A stretch of DNA of 26,792 nucleotides from Candidatus Anderseniibacteriota bacterium (GCA_003229735.1 QIFI01000066.1:1-26792); one strand, 5' to 3'. Counted from the stretch's first letter, positions 2,800 through 25,320 are shown. The notes: generated by a model not told the origin, from the letters alone. Translations and numbers: made by a program.

Positions 2800-4229
2800 C
2801 TATCGATTCCTTATTTCACCTAGTCCGCCATACGGCCTCGCTGTTTAAGAGCCGGTTTAATATCGCCGTTTTTTCCATCGCCCTGCTGTTTTTTATCGGA
2901 TTGCTGTCTTTCTTTTACGGGCTTTTCACTATCCCCATGCCCACTGGAGTTATTGGCTTCTACCGCATGGAGCCGCCCACAAGCTTTGAAATTTTCTATC
3001 TGTTTTTCTCGGCCATTGTCTCGGCTCTCATTATCACCATCACCATATATTCCTCCCGAATGAAAATCGCCGCCAGCACCACAGGTAGAAGCACGTCGGC
3101 CCTGGGGCTGGCCACCGGTATATTCGGCGCCGTTTGTCCGGCCTGTTTAGGCATTAATTTTCTGGCTTTTGGCAATGTTTTCACCGCCCAACTGGCTTTC
3201 CTTATCCCTTACATTTTTTGGATTCAAGTTGGTGGAATAATCCTGTTGTCTCTCGGACTTTATTTTGTCGCCCAAAGCGCCTACCGCAAATCCTGCCTCT
3301 CATGCTCATCTGACAGCCCAACTAAACAGCCCCTCGAATCCACCCCCAAATCTAAATCTAATTTCAACAACGATCCGGCCCTTAAAAAATTTACGGCCGT
3401 TGCCCTGGGCGCGATCATTATCTTTGCCTACCAGATAACCACGGTATTAGGAGAAAATCCGCCCCCCGACCCGACCTCATCAGGTCCCAACCTGGTTACC
3501 ACCAGCGGTCAGACTGTCAACATCGACGCAGTTATCGAATCAGTCACCCCTAAAGATGGATTCACTACCAACGTAAAGTGGAATGATATAGTAGACAAAA
3601 TGGTCAAAGCTGGAGTATTGGATCCCGATAAACTCGCCAGTATTCTCACCAAGCGATATCAACAGCCCATGCAGCCCGAATGGAGCGCCGTGCTGGCCGG
3701 GGAAGATGCCAATCTTACTATTAACAATGACAATGCCGTTTTCATGATGTATGTGCTGTGGACGCTAGCCAAACATAACCAGAATGAAATTTTGACCAAC
3801 AGTCCCTTTGCCAAAAGCTTCGTTAAATATGACATCGGCGTCGGACGCCCCGGCTATGGAGACACGCCGCTTCTGGCCTTAACGCCGGATCAGCAGGCCA
3901 TCGCCCAAAAAGTCGCCGCCAACGCTTATCGCCCCTGTTGCGGCAACTCCACCGCCGCTCCCGATTGTTCTCATGGATACTCCGCCCTGGGGCTCATAGA
4001 GCTAATGGCCTCGCAAGGTTTCTCTGAATCCGAGATATTTGCCGCCTTTATTCAATTCAATTCATTTTGGTTCCCGGAAACATACATTAAAAACGCCCTG
4101 TATTTCAAAATTACCCAGGATCAGGACTGGGATAATGTTTCCAAAGAACTCGTCGCCGGACCGGAATATTCAACTCTCAAAGGGTCTTTCACCGCCAAAA
4201 ATTATCTTAAAAATAACTTCGGAATATAA
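2796..4229 (+). CDS. Uncharacterised Cys-rich membrane protein (TM domain with CPAC and CLSC; globular domain with RPCCGNST..PDCSHG)
   Basis: 477 aa, about 5 TM segments followed by a soluble domain; ATGA overlap with the upstream gene. Confidence 0.8.
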   Translation: MTIDSLFHLVRHTASLFKSRFNIAVFSIALLFFIGLLSFFYGLFTIPMPTGVIGFYRMEPPTSFEIFYLFFSAIVSALIITITIYSSRMKIAASTTGRSTSALGLATGIFGAVCPACLGINFLAFGNVFTAQLAFLIPYIFWIQVGGIILLSLGLYFVAQSAYRKSCLSCSSDSPTKQPLESTPKSKSNFNNDPALKKFTAVALGAIIIFAYQITTVLGENPPPDPTSSGPNLVTTSGQTVNIDAVIESVTPKDGFTTNVKWNDIVDKMVKAGVLDPDKLASILTKRYQQPMQPEWSAVLAGEDANLTINNDNAVFMMYVLWTLAKHNQNEILTNSPFAKSFVKYDIGVGRPGYGDTPLLALTPDQQAIAQKVAANAYRPCCGNSTAAPDCSHGYSALGLIELMASQGFSESEIFAAFIQFNSFWFPETYIKNALYFKITQDQDWDNVSKELVAGPEYSTLKGSFTAKNYLKNNFGI

Positions 4230-5577: not shown

Positions 5578-7821
5578 ATGAACCAAGATCATAAACCTTC
5601 TAAATCTCATCAGTCAAATAATCACCAGGATTGTTCCGTCTGCGGGAAAAAGTGCGTTTCCTGCCAGGTTAACCGTCTGGCCGTCAGCACCGGCTCCAGT
5701 ATGGAAGCTAAACAGTATGAATATAATCTTGACCAAAAACTAACGCATCAGGAGCATGATGCTCGGAGCGGCAGCCAGGATATGTCTGACATGTCAACCA
5801 TGAACCATCAGGACCACGATTCCGCCATGAGCAATCCGCAAATGGCCCAGGATATGGAGCGCGATATGAAAAAACGATTTTGGATAGCTCTCGTCCTTAC
5901 CGTCCCCATTTTATTATATTCGCCGCTGGCCATAAATATTTTTAAGCTGTATCTTCCCAGCCCCATTCCCATCAACTGGCTGCTGTTGATCCTTACTACT
6001 CCGGTAGTATTTTGGACTGGCTCCATTTTTATCACCGGCGCCTACAATTCGTTGAAGAACCGGGTGCTCAATATGTCCGTCTTGATTTCGGTCGGCGTTT
6101 TATCGGCTTATTTATTTAGCATATTCATTACCTTATTTATCGGCGGAGAAACATTCTTTGAAGCCGCCGCCATGCTCATCACTTTTGTTCTATTCGGACA
6201 TTGGATGGAAATGAAATCCAGAAAAGGCACCTCCGACTCTCTGCGCGCCTTATTTGATCTGGTTCCTCCTAAAGCCATTGTTATTCGTCAAGGCCGGGAA
6301 GTTGAGATTTTAACCCGCCAAATCCAATTAAATGATATTGTTCTGGTAAAACCTGGTGACAAGATACCGGTCGACGGAACCATATCTAAAGGCGAAAGCA
6401 CTATTGATGAATCGCTTGTCACCGGCGAATCCATGCCCGTCTTTAAAAAAATATCAGATAAAGTAATTGGCGGATCAATAAACAAAACTGGTTCAGTAGA
6501 ATTCAAAGTAACTCAAGTCGGCAGTGATACCGCCCTGGCCCAAATTATTAAGCTGGTGGAAAAAGCCCAGAACTCCAAGGCCCCGGGCCAGCGCATTGCC
6601 GATAAAGCCGCCGCCTATCTGGTGATCTTGGCTGTCGGTGCCGGCATTGCCACTTTTTTTGGCTGGTATCTGATCGCCGGAGCCACTTTAATTACGGCTT
6701 TCACTTTTGCCATTTCCGTAGTGGTGATCGCTTGTCCTGACGCTCTGGGCCTGGCCACCCCCACCGCCGTGGCGGTTGGCACCGGCATCGGCGCCCGCCA
6801 TAATATCCTGATCAAAGACGCGGCTACTCTGGAGAGAGCCTCTAAAATCCAAGCCATCCTGCTGGACAAAACCGGCACCTTAACTGAAGGCCGTCCCGTT
6901 ATCGACAGCGTCACCACTATTGACGGAGTTTCCGAACGTGATCTATTATATTTTTCCGGCGGCGCTCAAAAACTCTCCAGTCATCCCTTTAGTGAAGCCA
7001 TTATCAATGAAACTGATCGGCGTCAGATTGATTTGCCTACTGACATCAAGAACTTTACGGCCGTTGGTGGACTTGGCGTCAAAGCCACTGTCGATGGTCG
7101 GCCGGTATTGGTTGGCACCATGCGATTTCTGGAATCAGAAAAAGTTGATGTGGCTGGAGTCAAAAGCCTGGCCGACCAACTGCTTAAACAAGGTAAAACC
7201 GTTAGCCTGGTTTCCCTGGATGGTCAGGCGATCGGCGCCCTGGCCGTTTCCGATAAAATTAAAGAGACGGCCAAAAATGCCGTTGCCGGTTTTAAAAAAA
7301 TTGGCATTGCCACCGCCATGATTACCGGCGACCATGACCAGATAGCCAAGATTGTCGCTAAGCAAGTCGGCATCACCAGAGTTTTTGCCAATGTCCTGCC
7401 CTCTGAAAAAGCTGATTACGTCAAAAAGATGCAGGCCGAAGGTAAATTTACGGCCATGGTTGGAGATGGCATCAATGACGCGCCGGCCCTGGCCCAATCA
7501 GATATTGGTATTGCTATCGGCGCCGGCACGGATGTAGCCATTGAGACAGCCGACATTGTTTTGATGAAATCTGATCCGGAGGACATATTGCGGGCCATCG
7601 CCTTATCCAAAGCCACCGTCAGAAAAATGAAGCAGAACCTCTTTTGGGCCGCTATCTATAACGTGGCCGCGATTCCCATAGCCGCCGGATTATTTTACAC
7701 TTCCCTGGGCTGGTCCTTAAGGCCGGAAGTATCGGCCCTCTTAATGTCCGCGTCATCAATCATTGTCGCCACCAATGCCGTGCTGTTAAAACGCATCGAG
7801 CCTAAACTTAAAAATGTCTAG
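5578..7821 (+). CDS. copA: Copper-translocating P1B-type ATPase (CopA/CopB-like, CPD variant)
   Basis: TGES, CPDALGLATP, DKTGT, HP, GDGIND, TM YN and MSASS motifs; His/Met-rich N-terminus with CxxC-x3-CxxC. Confidence 0.92.
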   Translation: MNQDHKPSKSHQSNNHQDCSVCGKKCVSCQVNRLAVSTGSSMEAKQYEYNLDQKLTHQEHDARSGSQDMSDMSTMNHQDHDSAMSNPQMAQDMERDMKKRFWIALVLTVPILLYSPLAINIFKLYLPSPIPINWLLLILTTPVVFWTGSIFITGAYNSLKNRVLNMSVLISVGVLSAYLFSIFITLFIGGETFFEAAAMLITFVLFGHWMEMKSRKGTSDSLRALFDLVPPKAIVIRQGREVEILTRQIQLNDIVLVKPGDKIPVDGTISKGESTIDESLVTGESMPVFKKISDKVIGGSINKTGSVEFKVTQVGSDTALAQIIKLVEKAQNSKAPGQRIADKAAAYLVILAVGAGIATFFGWYLIAGATLITAFTFAISVVVIACPDALGLATPTAVAVGTGIGARHNILIKDAATLERASKIQAILLDKTGTLTEGRPVIDSVTTIDGVSERDLLYFSGGAQKLSSHPFSEAIINETDRRQIDLPTDIKNFTAVGGLGVKATVDGRPVLVGTMRFLESEKVDVAGVKSLADQLLKQGKTVSLVSLDGQAIGALAVSDKIKETAKNAVAGFKKIGIATAMITGDHDQIAKIVAKQVGITRVFANVLPSEKADYVKKMQAEGKFTAMVGDGINDAPALAQSDIGIAIGAGTDVAIETADIVLMKSDPEDILRAIALSKATVRKMKQNLFWAAIYNVAAIPIAAGLFYTSLGWSLRPEVSALLMSASSIIVATNAVLLKRIEPKLKNV

Positions 7822-16336: not shown

Positions 16337-19300
16337 TCATTTATAGCTCACTGCCCGATCTCCCACAATACCCATTAATTTTTTAATCGCGGCCTCATCT
16401 CGGGTCAACACAAAACCGGTAGCCACCGCCTGGCGCGATCCATTATTTGCAACTAACAGCCTCACTCCCATTCCCTGGCCATCCGGAGCGTGATTAGCCG
16501 CCAAAATCCCTTTAATCTCCTCCAGTTGCTCCCGGCTTACCCCGGCCGGCAAAGCAATAGACAAAATTCTGGCCGTGCTATGCTCCGCCGCCTCATTATT
16601 CACCGGGGTCAGCTCCTTTTCCAGGATCACCAGATTCTCGTCATTCAATTGCCACACTCTATCAACCAGCACTTTAGTATCTCCATCCTTATCATTCAAT
16701 TTACCTTCCACAATTAAAACGGCGCTCTCTTCCCAATATTCTCGAGTCTTTTCAAACACTGTGGGAAACACCACCACTTCTACCGATCCCGCCAGATCTT
16801 CAAACTGGCAGAATGCCATTTGCTGGGCCTTCTTGGTCACGATTTGTTTCAAGCGGCTCACCACCCCCGCTACTCGCACCGTTGACGCTCGTCCTTTTAA
16901 TGAAGGCAGCTCTGCCATCGGGGTCGTCAGTCTCTTAAGTGAATCCCGCCACTCGCTTAATGGATGCTCCGACAAATATAATCCCAATAATTCTTTCTCC
17001 CAGGCCAGCCTCTCCTTTCTCTCCGCTGACGGTGCTTCCCGCAAATTCATTTTCGGCGGCGCCAATTCAATTTCTCCTCCCCCAAACAAACCCTTCTGTC
17101 CAGCGTCCACCACTTTATGTATTGATCGATTAAATACCAGCAAATCATCCAGATTTTCCAGCACCAGGTTTCGCTCGGCTACGGCATCCATGGCCCCGCA
17201 CTTGGCCATGCTTTCCACCGACTTACGATTAAAATCCCGGCCCGACACCCGCCGAAACAAATCCAATAAATCAATATATTTTCCATTGGTCTCCCGTTCC
17301 GTAATTAAAGCCCGCACCACGTTATGCCCCACATTCTTAATCGCGCTCAGCCCAAATCGAATCGCCTCTGTTTTATCATCTTGCTTCACCACCGTGAAAT
17401 CGTGTTCGCTCTCATTAATATCCGGCGGCAAAACCGCTATATTCATACTCAAAGCCTCCGCCACTTCAATCGCTTGCCGGTCCGTATTCCCCTCATCGCT
17501 GGTCAGCACTGCCGCCATAAAATCGGCCGGATATCGGGCCTTTAAATAGGCCGTCTGATAAGCAATCATCGCGTAGCAGGCCGCGTGGGCGCGATTAAAC
17601 CCATAGCGGGCAAACGGCTCAATAAAATCCCACACCTTAACCGCCGTATTTTTATCTACCTGACTCGCCATTATTGCCCCGGCAATAAACTTTTCCCGCT
17701 GTTCATCTAACAGCTTCTTGATTTTTTTACCCACCGCCTTCCGTAAAATATCTGCCTCCGCGTATGATAATCCGGCAAACTCTCTGGCCATCTGCAATAC
17801 CTGGTCTTGGGTCACAATCACTCCATAAGTTTTTTCCAGAATTGGTTTCAGTTTTGGATGCAGGTAAGTAATCATTTTACGCCCGTGTTTAGCCGCGATA
17901 AAATCAGGAATCGAATCCATGGGCCCCGGCCGATAAAGCGCCACCATGGAAATAATATCTTCAAATTCTGTCGGCTTAAGTTCCTTAAGATATCTTTTCA
18001 TCCCCGCCGACTCCAGTTGAAACACTCCCGTAGTCTTGCCTTCCTGCAATAGGCGATAAGACGCCGCGTCGTCCAGCGGTAAATTATCTATATCAATTTT
18101 TACTCCGTGCCGCTCCTTAATTCGCCGCAGTGCGTTTTGAATAATCGTCAAATTCTTTAGCCCCAGAAAATCAATTTTTAGCAAGCCTAAATCTTCCACA
18201 TCTTTCATCGCGTATTGGGTCACCAGCGCCTTCTCATCCTGGCCTGTAGTTGACATTTGCAGTGGTACATGACAAGTCAGTGGATCTTCAGTCACCACCA
18301 CTCCGGCCGCGTGCGTCGACGCGTGCCGGCACACTCCCTCCAGCTTTTTGGCCGTATCCACCAATCTTTTTACTTGCGGGTCGCTGGCATACATCTGCTT
18401 CAAGTCCGGCGAAACCTGCAAGGCCTCTTCAAAATTAGTAAACATGGGAATTGTCTTGGCTACTTGATCACACAGCGAATAGGGGAAACCCAATGCTCGT
18501 CCCGCGTCTCTAATTGCCGCCCGGGCCGCCATAGTTCCAAAAGTAATAATCTGGGCTACATGCTCATGGCCATATTTTTCCCGCACATAATCAATTATTT
18601 CATCCCGCCGATCGTCCGCGAAATCCAAATCAATATCCGGCATCGACACCCGCTCCGGATTCAAAAACCGCTCGAATAACAAATTATAATGCAGCGGGTC
18701 CAGCCCCGTAATCTTCAATAAAAATGACACAATACTCCCCGCCGCACTGCCTCTTCCCGGCCCCACTAATATCCCGCGCTTTTTAGCTTCATTCACAAAA
18801 TCCGCCACGATCAGAAAATATGAGGCGTATCCTGTTTTACCGATTACTTCCAGCTCATAATCAAGCCTCTCTCCAGCTTCCTTAAGCTTGTCCTGGTCAT
18901 AATAATTCTTTAAGCCAATCTCACATTTTTCCCGCAAAGCTTGCTCCGCTGTCTGGCCTTTAGGCAAAGGAAAGTGCGGTAAATGATTCCGGCTGAAATC
19001 CAATTTCACATTACACATCTCAGCAATTTTCTGGGTGGATTCAATCGCCTGCGGATAATCTTTCCAGGCTTCCTTCATCATCTCCGGTGTCTTCAACGAA
19101 AAATCCTCGCCCAGCATGCACAACCTGTTCTTATCCTGCACCGTCTTGCCGGTTTGCACGCACACCAGCACGTCCTGGGCCTCCGCGTCCTCGGGATGAA
19201 TATAGTGAGCATCCGTCGTGGCCACCAGCGGAATCTTGAATTTCCGGCTATATTTAATCAGAGCTGAATTCAACACCCGTTGCTCCTCAATAGCGGCGTG

Positions 19301-19831
19301 GTGCTGTACTTCCAGATAAAATCTATCCGGGCCAAATACTTCCCGGTGCCACTTAATCAGCTTCTCCGCGTCCTCTAAACGTTTCTCGTTTATCGCTTTC
19401 GCGATATCCCCATTCAAACAGCCGGATAAAACAATCACTCCCTCTGAATGCTTCTCCAATATGTCATAATCAATTCTCGGCTTATAATAATAACCCTCCA
19501 AATGCGCCTTGGTAGTCAACTGAATCAAATTTTTGTAACCCGTGTTATTCTGCGCCAGCAGTGTCAAATGCCGCGGATTAGCATCCACTCGCGCCCGTTT
19601 ATTCTTCCGGCCGGTCGGTGCCAAATACGCCTCCATGCCGATAATCGGCTTTATTCCCGCTTCACGGGCGGTTTTATAAAAATCCACCACCCCGTACATC
19701 ACTCCATGATCAGTCAGCGCCAGCGCGTCCATCCCCATGTCCTTGGCCCGCTCCACCAATGCCCCAATCTTCCCTAATCCATCCAGCAGGGAATAATGTG
19801 AATGAACATGTAAATGTGTAAAATCAGACAT
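16337..19831 (-). CDS. dnaE: DNA polymerase III alpha subunit
   Basis: PHP domain HLHVHSHYSLLDG, GPGRGSAAGS, MPDIDLDF, LKIDFLGL, YGFNRAHA, and C-terminal OB fold. Confidence 0.98.
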   Translation of the reverse strand: MSDFTHLHVHSHYSLLDGLGKIGALVERAKDMGMDALALTDHGVMYGVVDFYKTAREAGIKPIIGMEAYLAPTGRKNKRARVDANPRHLTLLAQNNTGYKNLIQLTTKAHLEGYYYKPRIDYDILEKHSEGVIVLSGCLNGDIAKAINEKRLEDAEKLIKWHREVFGPDRFYLEVQHHAAIEEQRVLNSALIKYSRKFKIPLVATTDAHYIHPEDAEAQDVLVCVQTGKTVQDKNRLCMLGEDFSLKTPEMMKEAWKDYPQAIESTQKIAEMCNVKLDFSRNHLPHFPLPKGQTAEQALREKCEIGLKNYYDQDKLKEAGERLDYELEVIGKTGYASYFLIVADFVNEAKKRGILVGPGRGSAAGSIVSFLLKITGLDPLHYNLLFERFLNPERVSMPDIDLDFADDRRDEIIDYVREKYGHEHVAQIITFGTMAARAAIRDAGRALGFPYSLCDQVAKTIPMFTNFEEALQVSPDLKQMYASDPQVKRLVDTAKKLEGVCRHASTHAAGVVVTEDPLTCHVPLQMSTTGQDEKALVTQYAMKDVEDLGLLKIDFLGLKNLTIIQNALRRIKERHGVKIDIDNLPLDDAASYRLLQEGKTTGVFQLESAGMKRYLKELKPTEFEDIISMVALYRPGPMDSIPDFIAAKHGRKMITYLHPKLKPILEKTYGVIVTQDQVLQMAREFAGLSYAEADILRKAVGKKIKKLLDEQREKFIAGAIMASQVDKNTAVKVWDFIEPFARYGFNRAHAACYAMIAYQTAYLKARYPADFMAAVLTSDEGNTDRQAIEVAEALSMNIAVLPPDINESEHDFTVVKQDDKTEAIRFGLSAIKNVGHNVVRALITERETNGKYIDLLDLFRRVSGRDFNRKSVESMAKCGAMDAVAERNLVLENLDDLLVFNRSIHKVVDAGQKGLFGGGEIELAPPKMNLREAPSAERKERLAWEKELLGLYLSEHPLSEWRDSLKRLTTPMAELPSLKGRASTVRVAGVVSRLKQIVTKKAQQMAFCQFEDLAGSVEVVVFPTVFEKTREYWEESAVLIVEGKLNDKDGDTKVLVDRVWQLNDENLVILEKELTPVNNEAAEHSTARILSIALPAGVSREQLEEIKGILAANHAPDGQGMGVRLLVANNGSRQAVATGFVLTRDEAAIKKLMGIVGDRAVSYK

Positions 19832-19838
19832 AGGTCAT

Positions 19839-19919
19839 CTACCATGAACGCTTGCCCCGTACTAAAGCGAGCTTCAGCGAGCTTTTAGTATCGGGGTGTA
19901 AATGTGTAAATTCCGACAT
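19839..19919 (-). other. 26-aa upstream ORF carrying a duplicate of the first 8 dnaE codons
   Basis: MSEFTHLHPDTKSSLKLALVRGKRSW* versus DnaE MSDFTHLH. 19897-19920 matches 19809-19832 at 22/24 nt; the two ATGs are 88 nt apart (out of frame). Confidence 0.75.
19850..19896. mobile_element. Short palindromic (MITE/REP-like) insertion
   Basis: gcttg-CCCCGTACTAAAG..agcgagctt x2..TTTTAGTATCGGGG hairpin lying between the two copies of the dnaE 5' end. Confidence 0.6.
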
Positions 19920-19935
19920 ACTCTTATGGCCACTT

Positions 19936-19944
19936 ATTATACCA
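19936..19944 (-). promoter_or_regulatory. Extended -10 promoter for dnaE
   Basis: Minus strand TG-G-TATAAT; the predicted start site is about 10 nt upstream of the duplicated ATG at 19919. Confidence 0.5.
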
Positions 19945-20116
19945 ACTCCGGTCATGAAGTCATTGAGATTTCTCATAAATCCCCGACTTTACAAACACCG
20001 CAAAACAAGACATCGCAACCTCGTCCCGTAATCGGGAATTTAGTCATTTGAAATTTGGAGTTGATTAGCGACGCGCCACAGCGCTAGTGCCGGCGCCCGG
20101 CCGACGCACCGCCTAG

Positions 20117-20240
20117 TTACTGATTACCAGTTACCAGTTACCAGTTACCAGTTACCAGTTACTAATTACCAGTTACTGATGCCCATCGCAGCATAAGTGA
20201 AAAAGTTACTAGTTACTAGTTACCAGTTACCAGTTACTAT
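20117..20240 (+). repeat. Heptamer tandem array TTAC(C/T)(A/G)(G/A/T), 9 + 5 units
   Basis: Units at 20117-20179 and 20206-20240, then AAACCT and the ATG at 20247. Confidence 0.92.
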
Positions 20241-20246
20241 AAACCT

Positions 20247-21041
20247 ATGCCCGCTCTCAAACGTGTCACCAAGCAAGCCGCCTATCTTACTTTCTACATA
20301 GTTGTCTTTATTCTGATTATTAGTTTTATCGTCGTCCCCAACATCGGTTTATTCACCGGTGATCGTAATCGCCCCCAGCCCCCGCCTCGTCAAGCCGTAG
20401 TTATTGAAAGTGTTGACCCGGTCATCCATGCCAACACTATCGATATTGTAGCTCGCGTCCGTAATCCCAACCCCAATGCCGGAGTCAGCAGCTATGATCT
20501 GAATTTCATCCTGCTTGATATTCAAGGCAGTGAGATCCAGCGCTACTCTAAAAATACTTATCTTCTACCCGGCAGTCTTAATTACATTCCGCTGCTCGAC
20601 ATCCCGGCCAATACCAGCTTAGCCAAAGTTAACGTCGAAGCCCCCACGAATATTACTTATACTGATTTGCCGGCCAATGTATCTGCTCCCACCTTTAACT
20701 CTTTTCTTCAGACCCGGCGGCTCCGTAACATTGGTGATGAAATAGTGGAGGAGCAAAAAGGCATTGTCACTAACACCAGCACTCTTGGCTATCGCCATGT
20801 CGAAGTCACCGGGGTCGCCTTTGACTCCAATGGGACAGTCGTCGGCGTCAGCACTACTTTCATGGGCCAGCTCCGGGTCGGAGAAGGCCGCGAGTTCACT
20901 CTTCAATGGCCATCTCCCGCGACGCCCACCGAGCGGGTAATCATTATCCCCACTACCAATGTCTATGAACCGGATAATATCCTGGAAATTAAAGGCAGCC
21001 CCGGCCGCCTTCGTGGCATCACCGACACCAAGCAGGAATAA
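20247..21041 (+). CDS. Membrane-anchored protein with two Ig-like/FxLYD-type domains
   Basis: N-terminal TM; beta-rich repeats ARVRNPN..FILLDIQG and GIVTNTS..VAFDSNG..FTLQW. Confidence 0.7.
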   Translation: MPALKRVTKQAAYLTFYIVVFILIISFIVVPNIGLFTGDRNRPQPPPRQAVVIESVDPVIHANTIDIVARVRNPNPNAGVSSYDLNFILLDIQGSEIQRYSKNTYLLPGSLNYIPLLDIPANTSLAKVNVEAPTNITYTDLPANVSAPTFNSFLQTRRLRNIGDEIVEEQKGIVTNTSTLGYRHVEVTGVAFDSNGTVVGVSTTFMGQLRVGEGREFTLQWPSPATPTERVIIIPTTNVYEPDNILEIKGSPGRLRGITDTKQE

Positions 21042-24507: not shown

Positions 24508-25320
24508 TTAAATGGGACCATGTTTTATCTCTCCGCCTATCCCCTCATAAATAACCGGCACATCGGCCATCAAAAGCTGATTAATAAATTTCAACCCATC
24601 ATCCCCGCCATCCAAAGCTGCTTGCGGCTCAAACTTAAGCCCCATTCTCTCTATCTCACCCAAACCAACTTTACACGCCTGGTGTGTAAAGTTGGTAACT
24701 TCACTCAACTCACCGCTCGGGACATATGGCGGATTGCTCACAATCAAATCTATATTTCTACCCTTCAAAGCCTTCAACATATCACCCTCAATGAACTCAA
24801 TCATACTATCAACCCTATGCAGCTTTGCATTTTTCCTGGCCACCTTCAATGCGATAGGGGATACATCGATAGCATAAAGCCGCTCAACTTTATCCGACCT
24901 CTCCCGCAGTAATGTAATACCAATAATTCCGCTGCCAGTCCCAATATCAGCCACCCTCACTTTACGACCTAATTTAGTGTACAAAGCGTCAATCTTGATT
25001 ATCGCCTCATCAACTAGTGCCTCCGTGCTGGGGCGGGGGACTAAAACATCAGGTGTCACTATGAATTTACAACTATGAAACTCCCACCAGCCAAATATAT
25101 ATGCCAGCGGTTCACCAGTTGCCCGGCGCCGAACCATCGCCTCAAACCGTTCCTGCTGATCTAAAGTCAGCTCCTGGTCATGGTGGGTAATAATATAGCT
25201 CGACTCGCTCTCCCCCAGCGCTTCCAATAAAATCCACTCGATATCAAGCTCGGGGGTATTAGAAATATTCTTCAACACTTTTTTCCCAAAACTAGCCGAC
25301 TGCCCTATTGAGATATGCAT
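24508..25320 (-). CDS. prmC: Release factor glutamine methyltransferase HemK/PrmC
   Basis: GEPLAYI.G..EF, VLVPRPSTE, DIGTGSG, NPPY, EP.AALDGG.DGL; located directly downstream of prfA. Confidence 0.92.
   Translation of the reverse strand: MHISIGQSASFGKKVLKNISNTPELDIEWILLEALGESESSYIITHHDQELTLDQQERFEAMVRRRATGEPLAYIFGWWEFHSCKFIVTPDVLVPRPSTEALVDEAIIKIDALYTKLGRKVRVADIGTGSGIIGITLLRERSDKVERLYAIDVSPIALKVARKNAKLHRVDSMIEFIEGDMLKALKGRNIDLIVSNPPYVPSGELSEVTNFTHQACKVGLGEIERMGLKFEPQAALDGGDDGLKFINQLLMADVPVIYEGIGGEIKHGPI
24664..24696. repeat. Perfect 13-bp inverted repeat inside prmC (in-frame insertion)
   Basis: ACCAACTTTACAC-gcctggt-GTGTAAAGTTGGT, encoding TNFTHQACKVG. Confidence 0.8.

Follow-up and report, generated by a model that had tools for sequence, protein, structure and literature searches.

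A short hairpin element within the first of two dnaE starts in a Candidatus Anderseniibacteriota genome, and similar loci at other gene starts

Ogata and co-workers are said to have described, in 2000, the Rickettsia palindromic elements (RPEs), small palindromic repeats carried in frame by protein genes of reduced genomes. RPEs are about 100-150 bp long and occur in Rickettsia only, and we know of no report of RPEs in duplicated gene starts. The hairpin family described here is likewise spread in reduced genomes and found in frame in miaA and other genes, and is set apart from RPEs by the size of its units (32-62 nt), by their conserved CCCC and YACGGGGCARG ends and by its host phylum. A second parallel is provided by e14 and phage 21 in icd, kilobase elements with integrases that replace the 3' end of the gene and carry a substitute gene end. 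The dnaE locus analysed in this study shares with them a gene kept intact by a slightly recoded second end, a displaced fragment beside it and mostly synonymous differences between the two, whereas the dnaE unit is shorter than 50 nt, is located at the 5' end and has no recombinase nearby. Translational-coupling upstream open reading frames (uORFs) are similar in that a short ORF ends a few nucleotides before a main start lacking its own ribosome-binding signal. However, tnaC, ermCL and secM are dedicated sensors, while the dnaE uORF is a cut-off gene start with a peptide that is not conserved between loci.

REP and REPIN sequences are short GC-closed hairpins with a non-palindromic GTAG/CGTC tag that are mobilised by RAYT (Y1 HUH), are extragenic, are usually present in tens to hundreds of copies and insert without target duplication (PMC3733652). 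The present hairpins are also GC-closed, have a conserved end and insert without target duplication, and the genome contains three Y1_Tnp-type ORFs; but the GTAG/CGTC tag is lacking, the genome holds three copies, and many copies lie within genes, in frame. The three Y1_Tnp ORFs are flanked by other inverted repeats. NTS/SRM hairpin repeats are recognised by Ssn GIY-YIG single-strand nucleases (Chenal et al., 2025, PMC11893778). The family hairpin is similarly oriented, with conserved flanking bases, and five small GIY-YIG ORFs are present in the genome; the NTS motif (CGTCATTCCCGCG…) is unrelated in sequence, however, and the GIY-YIG ORFs here are not hairpin-flanked. No published description of start-duplicating hairpin elements in CPR bacteria was found by full-text literature searches. 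The clean-insertion anatomy, the link to miaA hairpins, the tRNA example and the synonymous bias between the copies are added here.

The window is the whole stretch of 26,792 nt that was analysed (QIFI01000066.1, positions 1-26792, assembly GCA_003229735.1). It belongs to a metagenome-assembled genome of about 1.0 Mb in 131 contigs with a depth of about 7.6x, and the single sequencing run containing this stretch is a hydrothermal-vent metagenome. The gene for the alpha subunit of DNA polymerase III, dnaE, is located on the minus strand at 19831..16337, as are all features of the locus given below. The protein of 1164 aa begins with MSDFTHLHVHSHYSLLDG, comprises the PHP through OB domains and has full-length relatives with 63-85% identity, the matching proteins being named Candidatus Andersenbacteria. 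It is encoded by the sole DNA_pol3_alpha gene found in the assembly.

A direct repeat of 24 nt was detected at 19809-19832 and 19897-19920, with 22 of 24 positions identical and the copies 88 nt apart. The chance of such a match is about 1e-11 at a fixed offset, so the repeat is far beyond chance with all offsets in the 415-nt spacer allowed for. The upstream copy, termed the decoy, is preceded by a predicted promoter, consisting of an extended -10 element TGgTATAAT (19936..19944), 16 nt upstream of the decoy ATG, and a -35-like hexamer ATGACT (19958..19963; consensus scan, 10/12 matches, 16-nt spacer). The first 23 nt of the decoy start (19897..19919), delimited by repeat comparison, comprise the ATG and codons 2-8 (MSEFTHL-). 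They are followed by a hairpin unit of 46 nt, CCCCGATAC…GTACGGGGCAAG (19851..19896), which was recognised by its fold (-19.6 kcal/mol, z = -4.15), by the family pattern and by its removal restoring homology. With the unit removed, homology to dnaE extends over 7 more nt, CGTTCAT (19850-19844), which represent the last base of codon 8 plus codons 9-10 and match dnaE in 6 of 7 positions at the expected place. The rejoined flanks read ATG…CAC GTT CAT. Without the hairpin, the upstream copy amounts to 30 nt, of which 27 are identical to dnaE (MSEFTHLHVH versus MSDFTHLHVH); residue 3 of the decoy is Glu, where Asp (Asp3) is invariant in 11 relatives. Since dnaE homology resumes after the hairpin, the hairpin lies inside one copy and not between two.

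The decoy start is separated from the intact gene (16337..19831, defined by its full-length relatives) by a spacer of 12 nt, GGTAGATGACCT (19832..19843), which contains TAG and TGA in two frames before the dnaE ATG. The order at the locus is thus promoter, interrupted 30-nt old start, 12-nt spacer and intact dnaE. The decoy frame opens at the upstream ATG (19919) and extends over 26 codons, MSEFTHLHPDTKSSLKLALVRGKRSW, plus stop (19839..19919). Its TAG at 19841-19839 is located 7 nt 5' of the dnaE ATG, and the frame differs from that of dnaE. The fold of the whole leader RNA was not significant (z = -0.81).

The structure was recovered in three assemblies. A Logan contig of the source run, X1, spans 19300-20108 with 0 differences, 0 gaps and no alternative joint reported. 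The arrangement recurs in the JGI contig Ga0212232_1000393 (L013), with 99.98% identity over 5.2 kb. The longest exact stretch common to both start copies is 14 nt, which is below the word size of assemblers. The agreement of the three assemblies confirmed that the junctions are genuine and not an artefact of assembly. An earlier note on this DNA had reported the two copies of the dnaE start (22/24 identical), the location of the upstream copy behind an extended -10 and 88 nt away, and its 26-codon frame ending 7 nt before the real ATG. These features were reproduced on recomputation, both copies being present in the window, the Logan contig and the JGI contig, and the doubt that the note had left about the junctions was settled by the two independent contigs, which carry the same ones. 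Its view of the hairpin as an inserted element holds in that the hairpin is a clean unit and belongs to a family, with the correction that the unit is 46 nt long and lies inside one copy instead of between two.

Among relatives, dnaE of 11 genomes of the family has one start only, preceded at 8-23 nt by TATACT or TATAAT, and their similarity to the window begins at the real dnaE ATG. As the -10 element precedes the single ATG at this distance in the relatives, the predicted promoter of the decoy is in the ancestral position; the decoy retains the ancestral dnaE promoter, and the old start occupies the ancestral position. The earlier note had proposed a comparison with relatives to find the empty allele. 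The 11 genomes provided a single start without the feature; they are not close empty alleles. The closest relative of DnaE (85% aa identity) is encoded on a Logan contig (P0003, SRR18502801), where the gene call for dnaE begins at Met34 and the PHP His motif is missing. The 163 nt between this dnaE and the neighbouring gene are too short for the 88-nt segment plus the 33 missing codons, which is indirect evidence. On the same contig, a GIY-YIG gene (100 aa) comes after dnaE.

A multi-copy repeat comprising the whole 64-nt segment was rejected as a candidate, as no other copy was detected in the genome itself or, by BLAST, in 41 genomes of the order. Comparison of the insert with the sequences up- or downstream of the copies yielded no extended similarity above shuffles. 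A simple tandem duplication including the leader was rejected, the 12-nt spacer being unlike the 12 nt before the decoy ATG.

Hairpins of the family have the form CCCC-stem-loop-YACGGGGCARG, with conserved ends CCCC(R) and YACGGGGCARG. Matches to a strict-arm pattern came from 40 metagenome and 8 CPR genome contigs, and most of them lie within miaA in frame; a ninth genome-contig match, an unrelated palindrome in Periweissella, was left out. In dozens of contigs miaA carries the unit in frame as TPDTKNSSNFSTGQ, and miaA of the present genome is without hairpin. In 41 genomes of the order, a pattern restricted to the termini (CCCC … ACGGGGCARG) gave 48 matches versus 13 for the backwards control and was present in 18 genomes. 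This pattern uncovered many more units on the same contigs; their interiors differ and are still self-complementary, and each unit folds. Both orientations were observed among the units, whose locations include in-frame sites within genes, positions behind stop codons, intergenic regions and leaders.

Comparison of miaA of L038 with the orthologues of L054 and L024 revealed a clean 33-nt insertion without target duplication. The presence or absence of this unit shows mobility, and its clean insertion argues against an obligatory duplication on insertion; the flanking duplications that the earlier note had proposed to look for at other copies were absent at this site. The present genome contains three copies of the family only, so that current mobility would be putative here, and with a stricter pattern including the CTGAAG loop only dnaE and rpiB were matched, both in duplicated starts. 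When compared with MITEs, the family shows dispersed copies and presence/absence polymorphism (48 versus 13 matches, CPR contigs, miaA) and no flanking target-site duplication, dnaE homology resuming after the hairpin and the miaA insertion being clean. The miaA gene of L038 (plus strand, 5838-6897) holds three in-frame units of the family, one antisense near the N-terminus, the common TPDTK…TGQ and a third near the C-terminus.

Longer-loop variants of the strict arms were searched in 400 sampled Patescibacteria genomes, and the window alone matched. There was no Rfam match at the gathering threshold in the whole window and none at E <= 1 in 19780-20000. No terminator-like site was called on either strand in 19832-19900, where the minus-strand stem is followed by CAAGCG, and an attenuator-type terminator was rejected since a U-tract after the hairpin is lacking. 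A viral origin was dismissed after 0 matches in IMG/VR. Candidate mobility genes in the genome are the five stand-alone small GIY-YIG ORFs and the three Y1_Tnp ORFs, none of which is flanked by a hairpin of the dnaE type. Within the window, prmC contains a 13-bp inverted repeat (24655-24700, minus strand; ACCAACTTTACAC … GTGTAAAGTTGGT) that is read in frame as TNFTHQACKVG; its arms are unlike the dnaE hairpin.

All ORFs of at least 100 codons of this genome were scanned for a repetition of their start within 300 nt upstream. Eight matches were obtained, and only dnaE and rpiB have this hairpin between the copies. At rpiB (contig C35, about 3245-3341, L075, minus strand), the upstream start copy likewise contains a family hairpin. 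The rejoined old start is identical to the gene in 28 of 33 nt (MTIYIGADHNG versus MTIYIAADHNG), and the decoy frame, 28 codons long, ends 10 nt 5' of the real ATG. In relatives, rpiB has a single start. The same layout was found on other CPR contigs at xth, an exonuclease III-type gene (L046), and at miaB (L030), where clean removal of the hairpin restores homology and the decoy stop TAA abuts the real ATG. In another genome of the same family (G006), a tRNA-Leu gene has its leader and its first 28 nt in duplicate. The upstream copy contains a hairpin, and removal of the hairpin likewise rejoins this copy cleanly. The tRNA case shows that the duplication is independent of translation.

At the four readable loci (dnaE, rpiB, miaB and tRNA-Leu), the old copy continues for 5-10 nt beyond the hairpin. 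The duplicated length varies by locus (30, 33, about 42 and about 36 nt). At each of the four protein genes, the decoy frame runs through the hairpin without a stop, the hairpin being read in different frames, and the first in-frame decoy stop is located 0-21 nt before the real ATG, with a joint chance of about 3e-4.

Codon differences between decoy and gene copies comprised 12 synonymous and 5 non-synonymous changes. This bias was significant against random change (P = 6e-6) and under a lenient null with the decoy alone drifting freely (P = 0.0013). Possible reasons are that the decoy is constrained as a ribosome entry site, that the new copy was recoded, or that a foreign allele was imported. 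The differences were not adenine-specific, and a template/variable repeat pair of the DGR type was therefore rejected.

The best explanation of the locus, taken as a whole, is a clean insertion into the old start, a rescued start and reinitiation behind the decoy, to which a probability of roughly 0.7 was assigned. After its nucleotide 23, the original dnaE start carries the clean insertion of a small mobile hairpin element that is widespread in Patescibacteria. The interrupted 30-nt start still lies behind the ancestral promoter, followed by the stop-rich 12-nt spacer and by an intact second start with the gene. Since the element inserts elsewhere without target duplication, insertion alone does not explain the second copy, which we infer to have arisen in a rescue of the disrupted 5' end. 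The gene stays intact because its start is present twice. In this respect the earlier note was correct, as it had regarded the insertion as tolerated for this reason and the upstream copy as a decoy uORF behind the native promoter. The long target-site duplication that it had given as one option is contradicted by the dnaE homology resuming after the hairpin and by the miaA insertion of L038 without duplication, and the new replicase control point that it had considered possible was weakened by the same architecture at rpiB, xth, miaB and tRNA-Leu. Recurrence at these genes fits a rescue of disrupted 5' ends better than purpose-built control, and the decoy frame is best seen as a by-product of this rescue and not as a regulator of dnaE. 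The mostly synonymous differences count against this explanation, as a freely drifting relic should look otherwise. As an extension, the hairpins may constitute an undescribed class of selfish DNA of ultra-small genomes in which insertion at the 5' ends of essential and tRNA genes is mechanistically coupled to a fresh downstream copy, the hosts reinitiating behind the decoy; we consider this conceivable, with the odds against it. If this were true, synonymous changes in the new copy might give immunity to re-insertion.

Instead of a rescue within the genome, one start copy and the hairpin may have been acquired by recombination with DNA of another lineage. The strong preference of the differences for synonymous sites, as expected of functional alleles that have diverged, is consistent with such an import, which would resemble integrative elements with a substitute gene end. 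The hairpin arms are identical over 25 nt to miaA hairpins of other CPR lineages, and together with the hairpin-free miaA of the genome itself this points to horizontal movement. However, at every locus the duplicated segment matches the resident gene of the host (dnaE, rpiB, xth, miaB, tRNA-Leu), neither an integrase nor a larger element is located nearby, and the non-coding spacer has no similarity to the native leader; an imported start was therefore regarded as unlikely. The probability is also low that uORF and hairpin form a purpose-built regulatory leader tuning DnaE synthesis, e.g. by coupling it to ribosome supply. Such a function would agree with the retention of the decoy ATG and of an open frame, with the stop near the real ATG in 4 of 4 cases and with the apparent constraint on the decoy copy, but genes without any relation to dnaE share the layout, as does a tRNA gene, for which a uORF is meaningless. 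Moreover, the uORF peptides are unrelated, the hairpin is read in differing frames, there is neither a U-tract nor an Rfam match, and the feature is absent in relatives.

The near-identical 24-nt copies on either side of the hairpin are reminiscent of classical transposition with a 24-nt target-site duplication, which is nevertheless very improbable: the hairpin is inside one copy with dnaE homology resuming directly after it, the miaA member of L038 has no duplication, and duplicated lengths of 30, 33, about 42 and about 36 nt differ between loci. Translational bypass would require ribosomes to leave the decoy at its final codon ahead of the hairpin and to land on the matching dnaE codon. Codon 8 is indeed synonymous between the copies (His CAC/CAT in dnaE, Asp GAT/GAC in rpiB), and the hairpin starts right after it. 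Yet no stop follows the take-off codon, the next codon being CCC and the decoy frame continuing for another 18 codons without a stop; the real gene starts with an intact ATG of its own, and gaps of 88-126 nt compare with 50 nt in gene 60 of phage T4. Bypass was thus judged extremely improbable. An assembly artefact or strain chimera might be suspected in view of the fragmented, low-depth source genome, but has a negligible probability given the identical sequence in the window, the Logan contig and the separate JGI contig, repeats shorter than assembly words, and the same architecture at further loci and in other genomes.

For the preferred reading, an insertion into the old start followed by its rescue, the expression of dnaE was considered in the context of the whole genome. 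An SD-like motif precedes 92 of 638 ORFs, and TAnnnT forms a sharp peak at -12 to -7 (95 of 638 ORFs), the signature of leaderless transcripts. Upstream of the real dnaE ATG, neither an SD motif nor a -10 element at leaderless distance was found. With the decoy stop near the ATG and a genome that is SD-poor and leaderless-rich, termination-reinitiation behind the decoy is the likely route to DnaE and, from the arrangement of these signals, the most economical reading. The dependence of DnaE synthesis on re-initiation that the earlier note had proposed is plausible. Transcription from the native promoter would yield an mRNA with the decoy AUG first, at which ribosomes would load as on short-leader or leaderless mRNAs. 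They would read 26 codons through the hairpin, stop at the UAG 7 nt before the real AUG and reinitiate there to produce DnaE.

No replicative polymerase gene other than dnaE was found in this genome of about 1 Mb, so an insertion in the first codons of dnaE must permit life. A compact genome thus appears to tolerate a mobile hairpin in an essential gene, with the broken start kept as a decoy and an intact start after it, and the repeated occurrence of this solution (rpiB, xth, miaB, a tRNA gene) points to a general process. A further implication is that SD-poor, leaderless-rich bacteria can express a core gene through reinitiation downstream of a relic ORF. Gene callers and start-site prediction should reckon with starts of relic ORFs; the dnaE of the closest relative, called from Met34, may be compared.

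Several further sites were noted. The bases just 5' of the real ATG are similar in dnaE (ATGGTAGATGACCT, window 19832-19846) and rpiB (ATGGTAATGCT, end of the C35 spacer), a resemblance that may stem from a common segment introduced together with the new start or may be accidental. In L106 (G012:C3, minus strand), a family hairpin at contig positions 11370-11408 directly follows an ATG and precedes leuS, and the short frame ends in a TGA overlapping the likely leuS start. Start duplications without this hairpin were also observed. On contig C58 of the present genome (plus strand, about 1528-1775), about 28 nt including 7 nt of leader and the codons MANKLT are present twice, one copy in a 64-codon ORF with a hydrophobic tail and the other in the next gene. 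In L040 (plus strand, about 6718-6880), the start of rplK (L11) is duplicated over about 54 nt (MAKKIKTIVKIQIPAGQA versus MPKKIKTIIKLQIGAGQA), with a 50-nt AT-rich spacer between the copies and the family hairpin absent. Small GIY-YIG genes (about 85 aa) on contigs C102 (about 3450-4050) and C109 (about 2900-3450) of the present genome, each preceded by two hairpins, are located between a partial upstream and a full downstream copy of a tRNA-like sequence. Here too, a duplicated 5' end encloses an inserted element.

Upstream of the dnaE promoter, a terminator-like hairpin with a T-run is located at 20001-20028 of the window (minus strand), although it does not follow any minus-strand ORF of 100 codons or more. 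The spacer between dnaE and the divergent gene contains an array of CAGTTAC-type heptamers (window 20113-20180 and 20203-20249). Near-identical heptamer arrays were found on many contigs of the genome and in several genomes of the family, and at very high depth in run X2.
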